Below, one piece after another: positions 4,561-50,175 of a stretch of DNA of 64,000 bases (its first letter is position 1; every line of letters starts with the position of its first letter). The notes under the pieces were generated by a model that was not told where the DNA came from, did no database searches, and saw nothing but the letters and a program-made list of their open reading frames with translations. The DNA lies in assembly GCA_963692975.2 (NCBI GenBank), contig CAXMMR010000027.1, positions 40,887-104,886 on the forward strand, given 5' to 3'. Position numbers and translations under genes: made by a program. This DNA is from Acetobacteraceae bacterium. GTDB taxonomy: Bacteria > Pseudomonadota > Alphaproteobacteria > Acetobacterales > Acetobacteraceae.

Positions 4561-5838
4561 CTACCGCTGAACCAAAGCCGGCACGACGGCAGCCCGCGGC
4601 GTCCCCGTCCACTCGATCCGCCCCGGAGTATGGCAGGCGACGCAGGCCGGCGCCCACGCGCTACTCGTGGCGCCGCACTGGCCACAGCGCCAGCTCGGGT
4701 CGGGCGCGGCGGCCGCGGCATCGCGCAGCGCGCCGCGGGTGTCGCCGCCATCCGCCTCGGCGATGTCGGCGAGCAGCACGTGCAGCCGCCGCTGGTCGAG
4801 CCCGGCGGCCAGCGCCCGGCTCGCATGCCGCCGCGCCTCCCCGGTCAGCCCCGCCTCCAGCGACAGCCTTCCCAGCAGCAGCTGGCTTTCCGGATGGTCC
4901 TCGTTCGGCTTCACGAAGTCCTGGGCGCTGCGCAGACGGGCGATCGGGCTCGCGATCTCGGCCAAGGCGAGCGTCGCAAGGTCCGGCTGCGGCGCCCGCG
5001 ACCAGGCCTCGGCCAGCGCGGCGCGGGCGCGGCGGGCGCGGCCGCCAGTGCGCAGCCGCCGCGCATACAGCAGCGACGCAGGCGAAAACGCCGGGTCGAT
5101 CGCGACCGCCTGCTTGGCCAGCGCCAGCGAACGGCGTCCATCCGGCTCAGCCTCCGCCGCGGCCACCGCATAGGCGGCGCGCACCGGCGCCGGCGCGTCG
5201 GGTGCCGCGCGTGTGAGCTGCAGCGCCTCGTCCCAATGCTGATTGCGCGCGGCGAGGCGGGCCCGCTCCTCGGCCAGCCACGGCGTGCCCGGGCGCGCGG
5301 CCTCGGCGCGCCGGGCCAGCACGGCGGCCTCCTGCCAGTCCTCCCGCGCCACCGCCCGGGCAAACAGCCCGCGCAGGCCGATGAAGGCGGCATCGCGCCG
5401 CTCGGCCAGCAAGGCGTAGGCGCCGGCAACCTCGTCGTCGCGCTCGGCCACCTGGCCGGCCGAGGCGGCGAGCAGCAGCGTCTGCGGCGTGTCGCCCAGC
5501 AGGCGGCGGGCGCGTGCCGCCTCCAGCCGGCTCGCATCGGCATCGCGCGCCGCCAGCGCCACCAGCGCACCGGTCACCGCCTGGTCGCCGCGCCGCCGGA
5601 CCCGCGCCGCCGCCTGCCGCCGCAGCCGCCGCGGCAAACCGATCAGCAGCGCGACGAGGCGGCCGAGCCCGGCGAGCAGGCCGACCAGGATCACCAGCGA
5701 CAGCACGGCGAGCGGCATCGGCATCTGCACCGTAACGCCCTGCACCTCGAGCGCGAAGCTGCCCGGCAGGCTGGCCACCAGCCAGGCAAGCGCCAGCACG
5801 AGCGCCCCGACGACCAGGGCGGCGAGCACGCGGACCAT
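4561..5838 (-). CDS. hemY: HemY-like protein (N-terminal membrane anchor, TPR-like repeats, C-terminal Cys4 ribbon)
   Basis: ATG at 5838 overlaps the upstream stop (ATGA). It begins MVRVLAALVVGALVLALAWLVASLPG, then has two TM segments and Ala/Arg-rich TPR-like repeats, and ends WRCGQCG...CVAC. It sits downstream of hemC-hemD. Confidence 0.7.
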   Translation of the reverse strand: MVRVLAALVVGALVLALAWLVASLPGSFALEVQGVTVQMPMPLAVLSLVILVGLLAGLGRLVALLIGLPRRLRRQAAARVRRRGDQAVTGALVALAARDADASRLEAARARRLLGDTPQTLLLAASAGQVAERDDEVAGAYALLAERRDAAFIGLRGLFARAVAREDWQEAAVLARRAEAARPGTPWLAEERARLAARNQHWDEALQLTRAAPDAPAPVRAAYAVAAAEAEPDGRRSLALAKQAVAIDPAFSPASLLYARRLRTGGRARRARAALAEAWSRAPQPDLATLALAEIASPIARLRSAQDFVKPNEDHPESQLLLGRLSLEAGLTGEARRHASRALAAGLDQRRLHVLLADIAEADGGDTRGALRDAAAAAPDPSWRCGQCGATSSAWAPACVACHTPGRIEWTGTPRAAVVPALVQR

Positions 5839-7106
5839 CAGCCTTGCGCCTCCAGCCCGGTCAGCGCGGCGCGGGCGCCAAGCAGGCCGCGCGCCTGCGC
5901 CAGCCAATCCTGCAGGGGTGCGGCGGCCTCCGGCGGCAATTGCGACAGCGTGGCGACGGTGCCGGTCAGGTCGCCCGCGTCCAGCGTCGCCTGGGCATGC
6001 GCCAGCAGCCCCGCCGCGGGGTTGCCGACGATCACGTGGTCGCCCTGCCGTATGGTGATCACGCCCTGCATGCGCGCCCAGATGCGGCGCCAGAAGCCGC
6101 GACCGTCAGCCGCCGGCCGCGCCGCCTGGTTCGCCGCCTCCGCCAACGCCGGAAACGCCAGCCGCAGCCCGGCCTCGCTCGGCGGCGCGACGCTGGCGTA
6201 GCGGGCCAGCGCCGGCGGCGCGCCGTCGATCGCGCCCACCGGCTGACCCAGCCTGAGCGACGCCGACGCCTCCTGCAAGCGCGCCAGCCGCTCGGTCCGG
6301 CCGGCGAGCCCGGCGAGCGCCGCCTGCGCCTGCTCGGCCTTGGCCAGCCGGTCGGTCAGAGCCGCGATGGCGCCCTTCTGCGCGTCGATCAGCCGTGTGG
6401 TCTCCAGGCTGCTGGCGCTGCTCTCGCTCTGCTGCCGGGCGGCCAACGCATCCTGGCGGGCGGCCACCTGGTCAAGCCGGGTCGCGATCACCGCCAGGTC
6501 GGCGCTGCTGACGGCCGGCGGCGCGGGTGGAACGGGCGGCTGCGGGACAGGCGGCGGTGAGGCGGGCGGCGGCGGGTTGGGCGGCGATGGGGCGGCGGCC
6601 GGCGCCGGCATCGGCGATGCAGCAGCGACAGGCGCGGCGGCAGGCGCCTGCTCCAGCTTGGCGACCCGGCCGGTCAGGCTGGCGACGGTGCCGTCGAGCC
6701 CGGCGAGGCGGCCGGCGAGCTCCGGGTTCGGCGTCGCCCACACATAGGCGAGCCCCGCCGCCAGCAGCCCCGACAGCAGCAGCGTCAGCACCAGCGCCGC
6801 AACGCCGGCGCGCGAGCCCGCCCCAGCCCCGGCGGCCTGCCCCTTGGCGACCGCCTCCCGATCCGACCGCGCACCGACACCGCCCGCGCCGCCCGCCGGC
6901 GTGGACGAGGGACGCGGCGGCTGCCGCATCCGCCCGGCCGCCGTGGCCGACGATGCGGCCGACGACTCAGGCAATACGAACGGCTCCGACATCGAAGGCG
7001 CGGGCACGGACGGCGGCGCGACGGAGGGCGGCGCTGCGGCAGGCGCCGGCACGTCCGAGGCCGGCGAGACCGGCGGGAGGGGCGGCTCGGCGTCGGTGTC
7101 GCTCAT
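5838..7106 (-). CDS. Mitofilin/Mic60-like (HemX-position) membrane protein
   Basis: ATG at 7106 overlaps the hemD stop (ATGA). It has a Pro/Ala-rich N-terminus, a TM helix (AALVLTLLLSGLLAAGLAYVW), a coiled-coil-like middle and a C-terminal segment ...ITIRQGDHVIVGNPAAGLLAHAQATLDAGDLTGTVATLSQLP...WLAQARGLLGARAAL. It lies between hemD and hemY. Confidence 0.6.
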   Translation of the reverse strand: MSDTDAEPPLPPVSPASDVPAPAAAPPSVAPPSVPAPSMSEPFVLPESSAASSATAAGRMRQPPRPSSTPAGGAGGVGARSDREAVAKGQAAGAGAGSRAGVAALVLTLLLSGLLAAGLAYVWATPNPELAGRLAGLDGTVASLTGRVAKLEQAPAAAPVAAASPMPAPAAAPSPPNPPPPASPPPVPQPPVPPAPPAVSSADLAVIATRLDQVAARQDALAARQQSESSASSLETTRLIDAQKGAIAALTDRLAKAEQAQAALAGLAGRTERLARLQEASASLRLGQPVGAIDGAPPALARYASVAPPSEAGLRLAFPALAEAANQAARPAADGRGFWRRIWARMQGVITIRQGDHVIVGNPAAGLLAHAQATLDAGDLTGTVATLSQLPPEAAAPLQDWLAQARGLLGARAALTGLEAQG

Positions 7107-14839: not shown

Positions 14840-15036
14840 GGCCAGGGCTCTGCCCTGGACCCGCTGGGGCCGTGAGGCCCCAGACCCCTGTTATTTGGAG
14901 TCTCATTTCGTTCTTCCTTGTTTGGCGAAGCCATTCGACTCCTGCTTCGGCCAAACCGAATTATCCGTGTGGAATGAACAACAGAATGGATTTCAAAGGC
15001 TCCGCCTTTGATGGGGTCAAGGGGCAAAGCCCCTTG
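14838..15036. repeat. Family-A composite REP/MITE-like element (inverted orientation)
   Basis: It starts within the murJ stop codon: AAGGCCAGGGCTCTGCCCTGGACCCGCTGGGGCCGTGAGGCCCCAGACCCC...TTGGCGAAGCC...GGATTTCAAAGGCTCCGCCTTTGATGGGGTCAAGGGGCAAAGCCCCTTGCC. Confidence 0.9.
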
Positions 15037-15108
15037 CCTTGCTTGCCTTGCTTGCCTTGCTTGCCTTGCTTGCCTTGCTTGCCTTGCTTGCCTTGCTTGC
15101 CTTGCTTG
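15037..15108. repeat. 9-bp microsatellite (CCTTGCTTG) x8 with partial flanking units
   Basis: Read directly from the sequence. It continues the terminal CCTTGCCTTGC motif of the adjacent family-A element and ends 33 nt before the trpS ATG. Confidence 0.95.
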
Positions 15109-15140
15109 CCTTGCCTTCGCTCCAGTGAGACCTATCCCCC

Positions 15141-16133
15141 ATGCAGCGCGTCCTCTCCGGCATCCAGCCCTCCGGCATCCTCACGCTCGGCAACTATCTC
15201 GGCGCGATCCGCAACTGGGTGGCCTTGCAGCGCGACCATGAGTGCCTGTTCTGCATGGTCGACCTGCATGCCATCACCACCTTCCAGGACCCCGCCGCCC
15301 TGCGCGCCCAGACCCGCGAGAACGCCGCCACCGTGATCGCCTGCGGCATCGACCCTGCGGCGCACATCCTGTTCGTGCAATCCGCCGTCTCGGCGCACGC
15401 CCGCCTCGCCTGGATCTTCAACTGCGTCGCCCGCCTCGGCTGGCTGAGCCGGATGACCCAGTTCAAGGACAAAGCCGGCAAAGACCGCGAAGCCTCCAGT
15501 GCCGGCCTCTACGTCTATCCAAACCTTATGGCCGCTGACATCCACGCCTACCACGCGACACGGGTGCCGGTCGGCGACGACCAGCGCCAGCATCTCGAGC
15601 TCGCCAACGACATCGCCGAGAAGTTCAACCACGATTACGGCGTCGACTTCTTCCCCCGCATCGAGCCGGTGATCCTCGGCCCGGGCGCCCGCGTGATGAG
15701 CCTGCGTGACGGCACCAAGAAGATGTCGAAATCCGATCCCTCGGACCAGAGCCGCATCAACCTCTCCGACGACGCCGACACCATCGCGCAAAAAATCCGC
15801 CGCGCCCGCACCGACCCCGAGCCGCTTCCCTCCGAGCCGGCCGGCCTCGAGGGACGCGCCGAAGCGCGCAACCTGGTCGGCATCTACGCGGCGCTGACCA
15901 ACGCCAGCGTCGAGGCAGTGCTGGCCGAGCACGGCGGCACCGGCTTCAGCACCTTCAAGGACGTGCTGGCCGGCGCCCTCACCGAGATCATCGCGCCGAT
16001 CGCCAGCGACACCCGCCGGCTACTGGACGATCCGGCCCATCTGGACAGCCTGCTGTCAGCAGGTGCGGCGAGCGCCGCCGCGATCGCCGACCCGATCGTG
16101 CGCGAGGCGGAACGTCTCGTCGGCTTGGGATAA
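15141..16133 (+). CDS. trpS: Tryptophan--tRNA ligase
   Basis: [24 protein letters not shown]...[16 protein letters not shown]...KKMSKSD carries the HIGH-like and KMSKS motifs. Confidence 0.92.
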
Positions 16134-16147
16134 AGCCGCAACGGAGC

Positions 16148-16357
16148 AAGGCCAGGGCCGTCTGCCCTGGACCCGATTAAAGGCGAAGCCTTTAAAATCC
16201 ATTTATCAGCTGTGCCGCACAGCAAAATCTGGTGCCGGTTAGAGATAAATTGTCCGGCTTCGCCAAGCAGAAACAGCCGCCTCCGCCTTTAACAGATCGG
16301 GGGTCTGGGGCCTCAGGCCCCAGCGGTGTCCAGAGGCAGAGCCTCTGGCCTTTCTTC
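16148..16357. repeat. Family-A composite REP/MITE-like element
   Basis: AAGGCCAGGGCCGTCTGCCCTGGACCCGATTAAAGGCGAAGCCTTTAAAATCC...GGCTTCGCCAAGCAG...GGGGTCTGGGGCCTCAGGCCCCAGCGGTGTCCAGAGGCAGAGCCTCTGGCCTTTCTT. Confidence 0.9.
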
Positions 16358-21780: not shown

Positions 21781-21960
21781 AGGAAGGCCAGAGGCTCTGC
21801 CTCTGGACGGGCACCCATCGCACTCGTGCGATGGGAACCCGGCCGCTGGGGCCCGAGGCCCCAGACCCCATTCGAGTGGGATCCAAGGGCCTCGGGCCGT
21901 CGTGCGCAGCACGCCTTCGCGTGACGTTGGGTCCAGGGCAAAGCCTTGGCCTTCCTTGCT
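21781..21960. repeat. Family-A REP/MITE-like element (variant)
   Basis: AGGAAGGCCAGAGGCTCTGCCTCTGGAC...GCTGGGGCCCGAGGCCCCAGACCCC...GGGTCCAGGGCAAAGCCTTGGCCTTCCTTGC. It lies between tamA and tamB. Confidence 0.85.
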
Positions 21961-23886: not shown

Positions 23887-23942
23887 AAGGGAAGGCCAGG
23901 GCTCTGCCCTGGACCCGCTGGGGCCGGAAGGCCCCAGACCCC
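23887..23942. repeat. Family-A half-element (terminal module only)
   Basis: AAGGGAAGGCCAGGGCTCTGCCCTGGACCCGCTGGGGCCGGAAGGCCCCAGACCCC. It is the inverted partner of 24179..24233. Confidence 0.85.
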
Positions 23943-24178: not shown

Positions 24179-24233
24179 GGGGTCTGGGGCCTCCCGGCCC
24201 CAGCGGGTCGAGGGCAGAGCCCTCGCCTTCCTT
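24179..24233. repeat. Family-A half-element (terminal module only)
   Basis: GGGGTCTGGGGCCTCCCGGCCCCAGCGGGTCGAGGGCAGAGCCCTCGCCTTCCTTCC. It is the inverted partner of 23887..23942. Confidence 0.85.
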
Positions 24234-25629: not shown

Positions 25630-27051
25630 ATGCCGAAGCGCCTGCACGTGGTCACCTGGGGCTGCCAGATGAACGTGTACGACAGCGGCCGGATGGCCGA
25701 CGTGCTGGGGCCGCTCGGCTATGCTCCGGCCGATGGCGTCGAGGACGCCGACATGGTGATCCTCAACACTTGCCACATCCGCGAGCGCGCCGCCGAGAAG
25801 TTGTTCTCTGAGCTCGGCCGCCTGCGCCTGGTCAAGCAGGCCCGCGCCGAGGCCGGCCAGGCGACCATTCTTGCCGTCGCCGGCTGCGTCGCCCAGGCGG
25901 AGGGTGCGGAGATCATCGCCCGCGCCCCCTATGTCGACATCGTGCTCGGCCCGCAGACCTACCACCGCCTGCCGCAAATGGTCGCCGAGGCGTCGCGCGC
26001 GGCGGGAGCCGTCATCGACACCGACTTCCCGCTCGAGAGCAAGTTCGACCACCTGCCCGAAGCGACCGCGGCGCCGGCGGGCCTCACCGCCTTCCTCTCC
26101 ATCCAGGAGGGCTGCGACAAGTTCTGCTCGTTCTGCGTGGTGCCGTTCACCCGCGGCGCCGAGATGAGCCGCCCGGCGGCGGCGGTGCTGGCCGAGGCGC
26201 GCCGCCTGGTCGCCGCCGGCGCCCGCGAGCTCACCCTGCTCGGCCAGAACGTCAACGCCTGGCACGGCGCAGCCCCCGCTGGCGCAAGCGCTGGCGCCAG
26301 CGGGGGCGGCGCCTGGAGCCTCGGCCGGCTGGTCCACGCCCTGGCCGCCATACCGAACCTGCTGCGCATCCGCTACACCACCTCGCACCCGCGCGACATG
26401 GATGACGACCTGATCACCGCCCATCGCGACGTGCCCCAGCTGATGCCCTTCCTGCACCTCCCAGTGCAGTCCGGCTCGGACGCGGTGCTCGCCCGAATGA
26501 ACCGCCGCCACACCGCCGACGACTACCGCCGCCTGGTCGACCGCCTGCGCGCCGCCCGCCCCGACCTCGCGCTGTCGTCGGACTTCATCGTCGGCCACCC
26601 CGGCGAGACCGACGCCGACCACGCGGCGAGCCTCGCCTTGATCCGCGAGGTCGGCTTCGCCCAGGCCTTCAGCTTCAAATACTCGCCCCGCCCGGGCACC
26701 GTCGCCGCCGGCGCGCCGCGCCAGGTCGCGGAGGCGGTCAAGGACGAGCGCCTGCAGTCGCTGCAGGCACTGCTGCGCGAGCAGCAGCACGCCTTCAATC
26801 GCGCCTGCGAAGGCGTCGTCATGCCGGTGCTGTTCACCGGCGCGGGCCGCCGGCCGAACCAGGCGGGCGGCCGCTCGCCCTACCTCCAGCCCGTGCATAT
26901 CGAGCTGCCGCCCGGCCTGCCCGCCGCCGCGCTCGCCGGGCGCGAGACGCCGGTGACGATCCTCGCCGGACACCCCAATTCACTGTCGGCCACCCTCGAT
27001 CCCGCACAGGATCGGCCGGCCGGCCATCTTCAGGAGAGAGCCTGCGCTTGA
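25630..27051 (+). CDS. miaB: tRNA-2-methylthio-N6-dimethylallyladenosine synthase MiaB
   Basis: [22 protein letters not shown]...ILNTCHIRE...[19 protein letters not shown] carries the radical-SAM CxxxCxxC motif. Confidence 0.92.
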
Positions 27052-28668: not shown

Positions 28669-29564
28669 GCGGCGCCGCGCCCGGCCCCAAACCGCCGCTG
28701 TTCCGCCTGCCGCTGATGCGGCCGCTCGTCGGCCTGCTCGGCCGCCGCCGCCGCAGCGAAGGCCTGCGCCGCTCCATCGCCGAGCTGATGGAGGAGGCGG
28801 AGATCCCGCACACCGCCGGCCATGCCCCGGAGCTCGACCGCCAGGAACGCCTGCTGATCGACAACGTCCTGCGCCTGTCCGGCAAGACCGCCGACGACGT
28901 CATGATCCCGCGCGCCGACATCGTCGCCATGCAGGCCGACGTGACGCTGGACGGCGCGCTCGAGCAGATCCGCCGCGAAGGCCACTCGCGCCTGCCGGTG
29001 TTCGGCGAGCAGCTCGACGACGTCCTCGGCATGATCCACATCAAGGACGTCTACAGCTATCGCGGCCGGCCGGAGACCTTCCAGCTGCGTACCATCCTGC
29101 GCCGCCCGCTGATGGTCGCCCCGCAAGTCCCGGTCCTCGACCTGCTGCTGCAGATGCGCCAGGCCCGCATGCACCTCGCCCTCGTGGTCGACGAATACGG
29201 CGGCATCGACGGCCTGCTCACCATCGAGGACCTCGTCGAGACCATCGTCGGCGACATCGCCGACGAGCACGACGAGCTCGCCGGCTCGATGCTGACCGAG
29301 CGCGCCGACGGCACCCTCGACCTCGACGCCCGGCTGCCGATCACCGAGTTCGAAACCCGCCTCGGCCGCCCGCTCGCCCAGGACGACGCCGATTTCGACA
29401 CCGTCGGCGGCCTCGTCTTCACCCTGGTCGGCCGCGTCCCCGCCCGCGGCGAAGTCATCAGCCACCCGTCGGGGATCGAGTTCCGCGTGCTGGACGCCGA
29501 CGCTCGCCGCATCCGCCGGTTACGCGCCCGGCTGCCGGCAGCAAGTAAGGAAGCGGCAGAGTAA
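28665..29564 (+). CDS. corC: CBS-domain hemolysin/CorC-family protein (TlyC/YbeX)
   Basis: ATGA overlap with ybeY. It reads ...[11 protein letters not shown]...HSRLPVF...[25 protein letters not shown]... Confidence 0.85.
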
Positions 29565-29580
29565 GACCAGGAAAGTAAGC

Positions 29581-29634
29581 AAGGCCAGGAGCTCTGCTCC
29601 TGGACCTCGCTGGGGCCGTGAGGCCCCAGACCCC
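29581..29634. repeat. Family-A half-element (left terminal inverted repeat of the cargo unit)
   Basis: AAGGCCAGGAGCTCTGCTCCTGGACCTCGCTGGGGCCGTGAGGCCCCAGACCCC. Confidence 0.9.
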
Positions 29635-29652
29635 TTAACTTAAGAGGATCGC

Positions 29653-30222
29653 ATGGCTCTGGCAGCGGAACACGTGGTCGCCGAATGGATGTTTCGGAAG
29701 GGCTTTATGACGGTGCGAGGGGCAAGGCTCGGTAACACCGAGCTCGATCTACTCGGTGTTCGGCCTAAAAACGGTGGCGTCGAGGGCTGGCACGTAGAAG
29801 TTCAGGTCAGTTTTAGGCCGGTGGATCACCTGGGGCCAAAACTCAAAGAAAAGGAAAAATCAGCGATCTCACAGGACCTGAGTCAGCCCGACGCAAAACG
29901 AGCCGTGATCACGAGCAGAGCCGAGAAGTTTGTGGAGAAGAAGTTTACAAGCGAGAACGTCAACAAGCTGCGCGACAGCTGCTGGCCAGGCATCGAGTGG
30001 CGCAGGTTATTTGTCCATGGGCGACTAGTTGCGCATCAGCTGGAGCTGGAGGTCGTCCAAAGACATGTCGAGACGATCTCGTTTGAGGACGTCCTTGATC
30101 ATCTTCTCAAGCGTGATCCAAAAGAAGAGAGGGTTTCGGCGTCCGCGACGGACATTGCGGAGATTGTAGCGTTCTATGAAGAGCGCGTCCGAAGCACACC
30201 GACTGCGGCGAAACCCGTCTAA
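29653..30222 (+). CDS. Hypothetical protein with a PD-(D/E)xK-like (YraN/Mrr-like) nuclease core at the N-terminus
   Basis: AEHVVAEWMFRKGFMTVRGARLGNTELDLLGVRPKNGGVEGWHVEVQVSF resembles the E...(G)ExDL...VEV(K/Q) pattern of UPF0102/Mrr-type nuclease folds. The C-terminal 130 aa are Lys/Glu-rich and of unknown function. I see no H-hydrophobic-H (HUH) motif. Confidence 0.55.
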   Translation: MALAAEHVVAEWMFRKGFMTVRGARLGNTELDLLGVRPKNGGVEGWHVEVQVSFRPVDHLGPKLKEKEKSAISQDLSQPDAKRAVITSRAEKFVEKKFTSENVNKLRDSCWPGIEWRRLFVHGRLVAHQLELEVVQRHVETISFEDVLDHLLKRDPKEERVSASATDIAEIVAFYEERVRSTPTAAKPV

Positions 30223-30228
30223 TCTGAT

Positions 30229-30282
30229 GGGGGTCTGGGGCCTCAGGCTTCAGCGGGTCCAGGGCAGAGCCCTGGCCTTGCT
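30229..30282. repeat. Family-A half-element (right terminal inverted repeat of the cargo unit)
   Basis: GGGGGTCTGGGGCCTCAGGCTTCAGCGGGTCCAGGGCAGAGCCCTGGCCTTGC. Confidence 0.9.
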
Positions 30283-30301
30283 TCTAAAGGATCATCCCCG
30301 C

Positions 30302-30637
30302 GTGGGCTATCTCATTCCGACTCTGCTGCTGATCCTGGCCACGAGCCTGGAGGCCGGCGGAGACGCCGTGATCCGGATCGGGCTCAAGCCGCATGACCTG
30401 GCCGCGCGGGCCGGCCTGATGCTGGCGGGCGGCGCGATCCTCTACGGCTACGGCCTGACGCTCAATCTCGCCCCACTCGACTGGGGCCGCCTTATCGGCG
30501 CCTACGTCGCGACATTCTTCGTCGTCGCGCAGCTCATCAACCTGATCGTCTTCAAGACCGCGCCGACCCTGCCGATCGTCGTCGGCGGTCTGCTCATCGT
30601 CGCCGGCGGCGGGGTCATGACCGTATGGCAGCGCTAG
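30302..30637 (+). CDS. YnfA-family (UPF0060) small membrane protein
   Basis: GTG at 30302. It has four predicted TM helices, with ...ATSLEAGGDAVIRIGL...YGYGLTL...GAYVATFFVVAQLINLIVFK...LLIVAGGGVM. Size and pattern resemble YnfA. Confidence 0.6.
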   Translation: MGYLIPTLLLILATSLEAGGDAVIRIGLKPHDLAARAGLMLAGGAILYGYGLTLNLAPLDWGRLIGAYVATFFVVAQLINLIVFKTAPTLPIVVGGLLIVAGGGVMTVWQR

Positions 30638-31874: not shown

Positions 31875-31982
31875 CGACCTGCGCATGTTGCCCGACCTGC
31901 GCATGTTGCCCGACCTGCGCATGTTGCCCGACCTGCGCATGTTGCCCGACCTGCGCATGTTGCCCGACCTGCGCATGTTGCC
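31875..31982. repeat. 18-bp perfect direct repeat (CGACCTGCGCATGTTGCC) x6
   Basis: Read directly from the sequence. It starts immediately after the DsrE-like stop codon and ends 35 nt upstream of the next gene. Confidence 0.95.
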
Positions 31983-49969: not shown

Positions 49970-50010
49970 AAATCACCGCCGCCTGGCCCAGCTTGCGGCT
50001 TCAACCAACT

Positions 50011-50024
50011 GAAAGGAGGTGATC
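50011..50024 (+). promoter_or_regulatory. Extended Shine-Dalgarno-like sequence AAAGGAGGTGATCC
   Basis: This 14-nt run is, from memory, the reverse complement of the conserved 16S rRNA 3' end (GGATCACCTCCTTT). It lies 1 nt upstream of an in-frame GTG at 50026. Confidence 0.5.
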
Positions 50025-50025
50025 C

Positions 50026-50097
50026 AGTGTCTCATTGTTCACTGCATGCGCACTGCGCCGTGACCTGGACTGCCGACGCGAGGCTCGCGACGGCCTG
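50026..50097 (+). CDS. Candidate 23-codon small ORF (MSHCSLHAHCAVTWTADARLATA)
   Basis: GTG start right after the very strong SD-like run, stop TGA at 50095..50097, and an intrinsic terminator about 45 nt downstream. There is no homology evidence. Confidence 0.3.
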
Positions 50098-50140
50098 ACG
50101 CTCCTCGTCTGGCGGCGCAACTGCGCTCACGGACAATGGA

Positions 50141-50175
50141 AGGCCCCGGGAGGACGCTCCCGGGGCCTTTTTGTT
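50141..50175 (+). terminator. Rho-independent terminator
   Basis: GGCCCCGGGA-GGACGC-TCCCGGGGCC (10-bp GC stem) is followed by TTTTTGTTT. Confidence 0.75.

Follow-up and report, generated by a model that had tools for sequence, protein, structure and literature searches.

Immediately 3' of corC, in a 64,000-nt stretch of DNA from an Acetobacteraceae bacterium (GCA_963692975.2, contig CAXMMR010000027.1, positions 40,887–104,886 of the forward strand; this whole stretch is called the window below), lies a single open reading frame (ORF) of 189 codons enclosed by two inverted copies of the terminal module of an abundant intergenic repeat, here termed family A. A preliminary description of the locus had proposed that the encoded protein is a nuclease that mobilises these repeats and would thus stand as a different class of enzyme beside the REP-associated tyrosine transposases (RAYTs; REP, repetitive extragenic palindrome). 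The comparisons presented here suggest that the ORF is probably a horizontally acquired one-gene accessory locus, i.e., a stand-alone nuclease-fold cargo and not the mover of the repeats.

The ORF (29653..30222, +) is real: it encodes 189 aa from an ATG start, with a Shine-Dalgarno-like AAGAGGA 6 nt 5' of that start. The ratio of nonsynonymous to synonymous substitution rates (dN/dS) is 0.08–0.10, which marks it as a functional gene under purifying selection. Its G+C of 0.535–0.555, as against 0.69–0.74 in the flanks, bears out the marked A+T-richness relative to its surroundings that had been noticed at the outset. Further, its G+C at third codon positions (GC3) is 0.63 versus 0.90–0.93 in miaB, phoH, corC, the ynfA-like gene and thiF, a value so far below that of the neighbours as to indicate foreign codon usage. 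The features of the locus are as follows:

28671..29564, + strand: corC/hlyC-family gene, which closes the conserved block miaB-phoH-ybeY-corC and is the upstream anchor of the insertion site
29577..29634, − strand: left repeat module, i.e., the right-end family-A module reversed, with two GC-rich hairpins
29635..29652, + strand: leader of 18 nt, TTAACTTAAGAGGATCGC, containing AAGAGGA
29653..30222, + strand: stand-alone PD-(D/E)xK-fold ORF with conserved E6, D32, E49, Q51, R55, K97, R107 and W116
30230..30283, + strand: right repeat module, i.e., the right-end module in forward orientation
30302..30637, + strand: small membrane protein with a weak YnfA/UPF0060 match, the downstream neighbour, outside the feature

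Homologues of the upstream anchor carry PF03471 and PF00571, in keeping with its assignment to the corC/hlyC family. The YnfA/UPF0060 match of the downstream neighbour (E = 3.8e-4) is below the Pfam cut-off, and this gene is syntenic in L001, L002 and L210 (L-numbers denote loci from other genomes or metagenome contigs that were compared with the window). Rfam and ARAGORN gave no match in or beside the feature, and a scan for sigma-70 promoters found none for it.

A new family in the PD-(D/E)xK superfamily

The protein belongs to a new, unannotated family within the PD-(D/E)xK superfamily. Pfam and NCBIfam yielded no match, with neither Y1_Tnp nor REP_Tyr_transpos surfacing at E <= 10; PADLOC-DB 2.0 returned nothing for it at E <= 10, PHROGs nothing significant, and the sequences of the PDB nothing with either the single sequence or a profile as the query. 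The absence of a RAYT-type motif, which had been claimed from the sequence, is in agreement with this lack of a transposase match in Pfam or NCBIfam and of an HUH/Y1 signature. A word-indexed search of 5.8 billion proteins recovered 64 relatives, two of them close (97% and 85% identity) and the others at 48% or less, and an exhaustive profile search of 1.84 billion representatives recovered 594 at E <= 1e-3 (128 at E <= 1e-30), nearly all of them 160–190 aa in length and unannotated. In the alignment of the family E49, Q51, V52, S53, F54, R55, P56, K97, F98, R107 and W116 are invariant, while E6, W12, N14, D32 and H47 are at least 90% conserved; the N-terminal motif from which a nuclease had earlier been suspected is the conserved core of the family.

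The AlphaFold2 model (predicted local distance difference test, pLDDT, 81.6, rising above 90 over the core; predicted template modelling score, pTM, 0.77) runs from a helix (residues 2–15) through three strands (19–26, 29–39 and 42–51), a helical insert (66–110) and a further strand (116–122) to a terminal alpha-beta-alpha-alpha segment, and the predicted alpha-beta-beta-beta-alpha-beta core of the PD-(D/E)xK superfamily is supported by this model. When searched with Foldseek against the PDB, its best match was AF1548 (1Y88; E = 7e-4), with further matches to MspJI, SfsA, the R2 restriction-like endonuclease, Cdn1, FokI, VC1899, AspBHI, MunI, BamHI and AddAB; the matches in BFVD were to herpesvirus UL24, to proteins labelled 'PD-(D/E)XK nuclease' or 'restriction endonuclease' (phage proteins among them), and to Mrr-like and VRR-NUC proteins. 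Every informative match in these searches was a PD-(D/E)xK nuclease, and the core of this type that the preliminary description had recognised is thereby upheld, albeit with a glutamine for the motif lysine. The conserved residues are placed as the fold would have them: E6 lies in helix 1, D32 at the start of strand 2 and E49-x-Q51 in strand 3. The position of the motif lysine is occupied by Q51 in every member, and the invariant K97, which the model places on the following helix, might stand in for it. E-x-Q variants occur in active restriction enzymes such as BglII. The protein can be seen as a putative metal-dependent DNA endonuclease that would use E6, D32 and E49 with Q51 in the usual lysine position.

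Its nearest counterparts in the superfamily are minimal stand-alone or modular domains (AF1548/1Y88, the cleavage domains of MspJI and FokI, SfsA, Mrr-like domains and UL24), with which it shares the order of core elements, the acidic residue of helix 1 (E6), D32 and the E49-x-Q51 motif. It differs from known members in lying outside every Pfam, NCBIfam, PADLOC and PDB-sequence profile, in having glutamine in place of the motif lysine, in a Lys/Glu-rich helical insert of about 60 residues between strands 3 and 4, and in being free of any fused recognition or sensor domain.

Distribution of the homologues and history of the corC site

A scan of one genome per species found a homologue in 144 species, among them members of Acetobacteraceae, Beta- and Gammaproteobacteria, Verrucomicrobiota, Planctomycetota, Acidobacteriota, Armatimonadota, Chloroflexota, Actinomycetota and Elusimicrobiota, and these homologues are usually of lower G+C than their hosts. 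Clustering of all ORFs within 4 kb of a homologue at 81 loci revealed no neighbour family common to more than four of them; this lack of a widely shared neighbour, together with the heterogeneous Pfam content of the neighbourhoods, indicates that there is no conserved partner gene. The immediate neighbours are as varied as tRNA synthetases, GatB, type I and type ISP restriction-modification genes and Mrr.

A recurrent setting among the homologues is the integron cassette. One homologue (L037) lies within an array of attC sites of about 125 nt (R'' ATCTAAC, R' GTTAGAT), and another (L015) lies between perfect 64-nt copies of attC in a complete integron, whose integrase gene (TIGR02249, E = 2e-131) is divergent and 2.2 kb upstream. 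Three more (L004, L007 and L206) have an attC-like site immediately 3'. A strict ungapped-arm scanner for attC found almost nothing and was dropped, and the fold-based scanner used in its stead is still conservative; the informative test for cassettes is a search for GTTRRRY within 45 nt upstream of the start at 83 loci, with random positions as the control. At 20 of the 83 loci, versus 3.2% of random positions, the start is preceded by the motif, for the most part as GTTAGGC/T between −13 and −20, and at many homologue loci the R'' box GCCTAAC contains the stop codon. The sole plasmid match is in a cassette array of Vibrio alginolyticus punctuated by DUF3265 ORFs. Such DUF3265 ORFs read across Vibrio attC repeats. 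In likeness to integron cassettes of unknown function, the homologues are promoter-less single ORFs of about 160–190 aa that occur in arrays, with GTTRRRY 13–20 nt upstream, the stop codon inside the attC R'' box and, in one case, an intI; the differences are that the window copy has no attC and that no named cassette system was matched. The ends of the window copy do recall cassette boundaries: GTCTAA|T at the end of the ORF resembles the R'' box GTCTAAC/GCCTAAC, and TTAACT at the start of the leader is one mismatch from TTRRRY, so that the leader weakly resembles the TTRRRY left edge of a cassette.

Other settings include a resolvase/DDE island and a HEPN-MNT/BrnT toxin-antitoxin islet. In a Rhodocyclaceae metagenome-assembled genome (MAG) the homologue (L209:3001–3549) is co-directional inside the methylcrotonyl-CoA carboxylase/HMG-CoA lyase (liu) operon, between the genes for enoyl-CoA hydratase and the biotin carboxylase subunit, and is flanked by no recognisable attC or repeats. 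The homologue of an Anaerolineales MAG (L079:1–3200) lies among six direct repeats of about 140 bp that have the look of an attC array; these repeats are the conserved 3' ends of hsdS-like coding sequences (...LDRAFKGEL*) and are not counted as cassettes for this reason, the arrangement being suggestive of a shuffling type I specificity locus.

Taken together, these settings are probably best explained by a family that moves across bacteria as a self-contained one-gene unit, often as an integron cassette, with the copies outside cassettes coming to rest either in small islets of accessory genes or, in the same direction as the surrounding genes, within or just behind housekeeping operons. The window copy would be one that became fixed just past ybeY-corC in one clade of Acetobacteraceae and has been kept there by purifying selection. 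In four genomes (the window, L001, L002 and L210) the same unit of reversed module, ORF and module stands immediately 3' of corC. The next relatives by CorC identity, L081 (83%) and L082 (77%), are both without the ORF. Upstream synteny is kept in them (phoH-ybeY-corC in L081, Omp85-acyltransferase-miaB-phoH-ybeY-corC in L082) and ends directly past corC, where other genes are found; neither the ORF nor the repeat occurs in the 4.5 kb of L081 or the 10.9 kb of L082. The supposition that lnt usually follows corC, on which an insertion had earlier been argued, did not hold in these two nearest ORF-less relatives, as lnt is not 3' of corC in either.

Within the four genomes the ORF falls into two allele classes, {window, L001} and {L002, L210}, with about 80% nucleotide identity and a synonymous divergence (dS) of about 1 between them. 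The flanking genes are 85–96% identical (dS about 0.15–0.3) and group differently, the window being nearest to L002, and the step in divergence coincides with the repeat modules. As the topologies of allele and flanks differ while the site is fixed, two old alleles have been moved between lineages by recombination. Such an exchange of two divergent alleles would be part of the life of a maintained, exchanged accessory gene, which it fits, and says nothing specific on repeat mobilisation.

The family-A repeat and the genes that it brackets

The two flanks of the ORF carry the same right-end module facing outward, which confirms the inverted flanks made of terminal modules only that the preliminary description had reported. 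Perfect inverted arms pair 29619–29634 with 30230–30245 (16 nt) and 29577–29589 with 30271–30283 (13 nt), and the reverse complement of 29577–29634 is identical to 30230–30283 in 52 of 58 columns, the rest being four 1-nt gaps and two mismatches. The module, GGGGTCTGGGGCCTCAcGGCCCCAGCGGGTCCAGGGCAGAGCCCTGGCCTT, consists of two GC-rich hairpins and is present in 15 distinct copies in the window; its 16-mer core has 20 matches there with up to three mismatches versus 1.16 expected. In the right module CCTTGCTTCT comes after the distal hairpin, CCAGGGCAGAGCCCTGG, and this hairpin was flagged as resembling a terminator.

The usual element in the window is about 210 bp long and tripartite, with a left end (AAGGCCAGGGGC..GCCCCTGGACCC, then the AAAGGCGAAGCCTTT hairpin), a semi-conserved middle (GGCTTCGCCAAGCAAGGAA ... 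CTCCAAAC) and the right-end module; it usually begins directly 3' of a stop codon. The terminal sequence of the family is AAGGCCAGGG...CCCTGGCCTT, and since the outermost hairpin is identical at both ends, the element has terminal inverted repeats. A scan of metagenome contigs for the module listed at least 120 contigs, among which the dominant form is a symmetric doublet made up of a reversed right-end module, a spacer of about 97 bp and a forward module. From its layout, this doublet is a palindrome akin to REPINs (REP doublets forming hairpins) or to miniature inverted-repeat transposable elements (MITEs). The leader of the ORF weakly resembles the inner edge of the doublet (ATTCATTAAGAATCG). 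Repeat-bearing contigs of at least 3 kb among the matches listed have a median G+C of 0.65 (range 0.59–0.72), a breadth that indicates that the repeat inhabits a range of lineages.

Individual copies vary in ways of their own. The loop beside GGCCCC is variously CGTGAGG, CGGAGG, CTGAGG or CGTAGG, with no fixed tetranucleotide. The left module at the ORF has, at 29585–29606, a compensated stem GGAGC...GCTCC, extended by one pair, in place of the GGGC...GCCC of L001 (5934–5955), L002 and most copies; the same extension is seen in a copy near 62.2 kb of the window (62189 region) and in L210. A compensated change of this kind suggests either that the hairpin is under selection or that copies have undergone gene conversion with one another. 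Some modules (window 21854–21951, L002:4330–4370, L210:2415–2470) contain a nested extra hairpin of about 32 nt between their two hairpins, for example CCGGGTTCCCATCGCACGAGTGCGATGGGTGCCC or the variant GTCGTGCG...CGTGACGG, so that the repeat is itself a target for secondary insertions.

The inverted bracket is by no means peculiar to the ORF. In the window, trpS (15141–16133; TIGR00233, E = 5e-83) is enclosed by a pair of full, mutually inverted family-A elements (14840–16350), and a second solo inverted pair, 23892–23942 reversed and 24179–24230 forward, encloses 236 bp of G+C 0.50–0.52. This low-G+C stretch falls within the region of divergent promoters that separates an Omp85/TamA-like gene (−) from an acyltransferase gene (+), with no ORF, tRNA or Rfam match inside it, and the arrangement of its modules is also kept in L001. 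In the metagenome contigs solo inverted modules surround a fumarylacetoacetase gene (L096), with 18 nt from the module to the start codon exactly as at the window ORF, an ExoIII-like gene (L109) with the same tight geometry, and, in L132, L093 and L102, small genes or gene pairs that differ from one another and match no Pfam family. Among 20 adjacent pairs of modules spaced 300–2000 bp apart, the orientations were −+ in 7, −− in 8, +− in 4 and ++ in 1, i.e., the −+ orientation is not enriched at gene-sized spacing. As many unrelated genes are enclosed by inverted modules, the bracket has to be ascribed to the repeat family and not to the ORF, and a RAYT-like gene context arises routinely because the family is so dense. 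The modules around the ORF are unremarkable copies of a palindromic REP-doublet/MITE-like family with which the intergenic DNA of this lineage is filled, and where a repeat family is dense, inverted REPs on either side of a gene do not mark its product as a REP-mobilising enzyme. A perfect tandem repeat of 9 bp x 9.1 (CTTGCCTTG, 15033–15114) abuts the left-end hairpin of the element upstream of trpS.

The converse association, of the homologues with inverted half-elements, fares no better. The window repeat is absent from 78 other homologous loci, and among the homologue loci fetched it is found in the close relatives L001 and L002. Beyond close relatives inverted flanks were seen only in L029 (Variovorax sp. 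PCZ-1), where they are of a sequence unrelated to the window repeat. There the homologue (6001–6549) is central in a unit of about 1 kb (5736–6755) that is bounded by inverted repeats of about 170 bp, 92–94% complementary, and lies between genes for dienelactone hydrolase and glyoxalase; none of the other loci fetched contains this 170-bp repeat.

With RAYT/REP-REPIN systems (Bertels and Rainey 2011, PMC3116915; PMC3337134) the locus shares a single-copy ORF flanked by inverted copies of an abundant extragenic palindrome, and the family-A repeats, commonly inverted doublets with a spacer of about 97 bp, resemble REPINs. It differs in that the protein is not an HUH/Y1 (IS200-like) transposase, that the association with the flanks is not kept across homologues of the ORF, and that family A brackets unrelated genes too. 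The REPs of RAYT systems carry a conserved GTAG/CGTC head (Di Nocera et al. 2013, PMC3733652), and the family-A repeat does not. One module-carrying contig encodes the N-terminus of a RAYT (L097:2074–2399; NF047646, E = 1.7e-11), truncated by the contig end and preceded by a GTAG-type hairpin (GTAGCCCGGGTGAAACCCGGG) that is unrelated to family A and absent from the window and the other loci; as it adjoins this hairpin and not a family-A module, it neither confirms nor refutes a RAYT origin of family A. A tblastn search of the window with E. coli YafM as the query found no RAYT, a result of little weight for a window of 64 kb. A parallel might also be struck with pairs of an insertion sequence (IS) and its derived MITEs, in that the non-coding elements and the ORF unit have terminal modules in common. 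Unlike such pairs, there is one copy of the ORF in the window and one conserved site in four genomes, the codon usage of the ORF is unlike that of the host of the repeats, and the protein has no transposase fold or family match.

Cargo, mobiliser or hairpin nuclease

In light of the above, the notion of a cargo gene lying between two elements, which the preliminary description had allowed as an alternative, is the better reading. Its cellular role would most plausibly be defence against foreign DNA or selfish maintenance, a view that draws in part on reports of a role in phage defence for small nuclease-domain cassettes, both from mobile integrons and from sedentary chromosomal ones (bioRxiv 10.1101/2024.07.02.601686, 10.1101/2024.07.02.601719). 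If the cargo reading is true, about 600 diverged clusters of small PD-(D/E)xK-like proteins, for which no Pfam, NCBIfam or PADLOC model exists, become describable as a recurrent cassette/accessory gene, and this family with its E-x-Q variant of the active site would be a reasonable candidate for screens for single-gene defence systems or selfish nucleases. Current views of REP biology are not overturned by these results.

Several observations weigh against this account. The association with defence is thin: there is no PADLOC match, restriction-modification or defence-like genes are immediate neighbours in only about 6–7 of 132 cases, and a phage collection was without any homologue. The structural matches are weak, with template modelling (TM) scores of 0.3–0.4, and with the canonical lysine replaced by Q51 catalysis is not assured. 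As for a cassette origin, there is no GTTRRRY within 45 nt 5' of the window ORF and no attC-like hairpin anywhere in the window, nor was an intI seen near this copy, in a window that was not scanned for intI and that has a Xer-like recombinase motif near 48.9 kb. The palindrome-centred homologue of L029 sits uneasily with mere accessory cargo, and so does the distribution of the repeat itself: the clade with the ORF is rich in it, and the two nearest ORF-less relatives have none in 15 kb, a single-clade coincidence that would fit the idea of a mobiliser.

That idea, in which the protein acts in trans on family A as its nuclease or mobilisation factor, a non-RAYT analogue, and the unit of reversed module, ORF and module the autonomous or domesticated parent of the 210-bp elements, can draw on more than this coincidence around L081 and L082. 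The ORF occupies exactly the position of the 97-bp spacer of the symmetric doublet, between outward-facing terminal modules, the arrangement is kept in four genomes, the protein has a nuclease fold, and the L029 homologue is flanked by inverted repeats as well. Against it stand the same brackets around trpS, fumarylacetoacetase, the ExoIII-like gene and other unrelated genes, the absence of the repeat from about 78 other homologous loci, all but one of which lack inverted flanks of any kind, and the many homologues that are attC-flanked cassettes, whose mobility is explained by IntI. The numbers are likewise discordant: the repeat is in at least 120 contigs of varied G+C, whereas among 5.8 billion proteins only two clusters exceed 48% identity to the ORF, and 429 kb of the repeat-bearing contigs among those listed hold no homologue of the ORF. 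With the codon usage of the ORF foreign to the very genome that the repeats fill, and a RAYT encoded on a repeat-bearing contig (L097), though beside a different, GTAG-type hairpin, the proposed mobiliser is very improbable, and given the genericity of the bracket, the repeat-free homologues and the cassettes this central proposal of the preliminary description is not supported.

Slightly less improbable, though still unlikely, is an ectopic capture, in which IntI inserted a cassette into the folded hairpin of a REP doublet as an attC-like secondary site and the attC was later lost. The frequent carriage of the family in cassettes, the resemblance of the ORF end and the leader start to R'' and TTRRRY, and the central position of the L029 homologue in a 170-bp palindrome would agree with such an event; the window copy has neither attC nor GTTRRRY near it and no intI was seen there (again without a scan of the window for intI), the relics of motifs are 6–7 nt and possibly due to chance, and since housekeeping genes that cannot be cassettes are bracketed alike, no special insertion event is needed. 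Unlikely, too, is the proposition that the fold is retained without nuclease function, in a DNA-binding or regulatory protein or an inactivated domain. In its favour are the glutamine at the catalytic lysine position in every member, the moderate structural similarity and the want of a conserved adjacent methylase, antitoxin or sensor partner, but across about 600 diverged clusters E6, D32, E49, K97 and R55 show strict or nearly strict conservation, as would be expected of residues in an active site. Finally, there is a very small chance that the placements in the centre of a REP doublet, in the centre of the L029 palindrome and beside attC hairpins are no coincidence and that the protein is a nuclease specific for a DNA structure, that of folded palindromes; it would then either insert itself into hairpin or cruciform DNA (homing) or process or mobilise such repeats. 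If true, REP/MITE biology would include a class of enzyme other than the RAYTs.

Some further observations concern the window at large. A call by ARAGORN of a 96-nt 'tRNA-His (atg)' at 26838–26933, antisense inside miaB, is probably a false positive. A perfect tandem repeat of 18 bp x 6 (CGACCTGCGCATGTTGCC, 31875–31982) is intergenic, 1.7 kb 3' of the ORF, between a DrsE-like gene and a gene with an SH3 domain. At 50003–50168 there is an Rfam match to the Caulobacter small RNA (sRNA) CC2171, which at 81.8 bits is above the gathering score.

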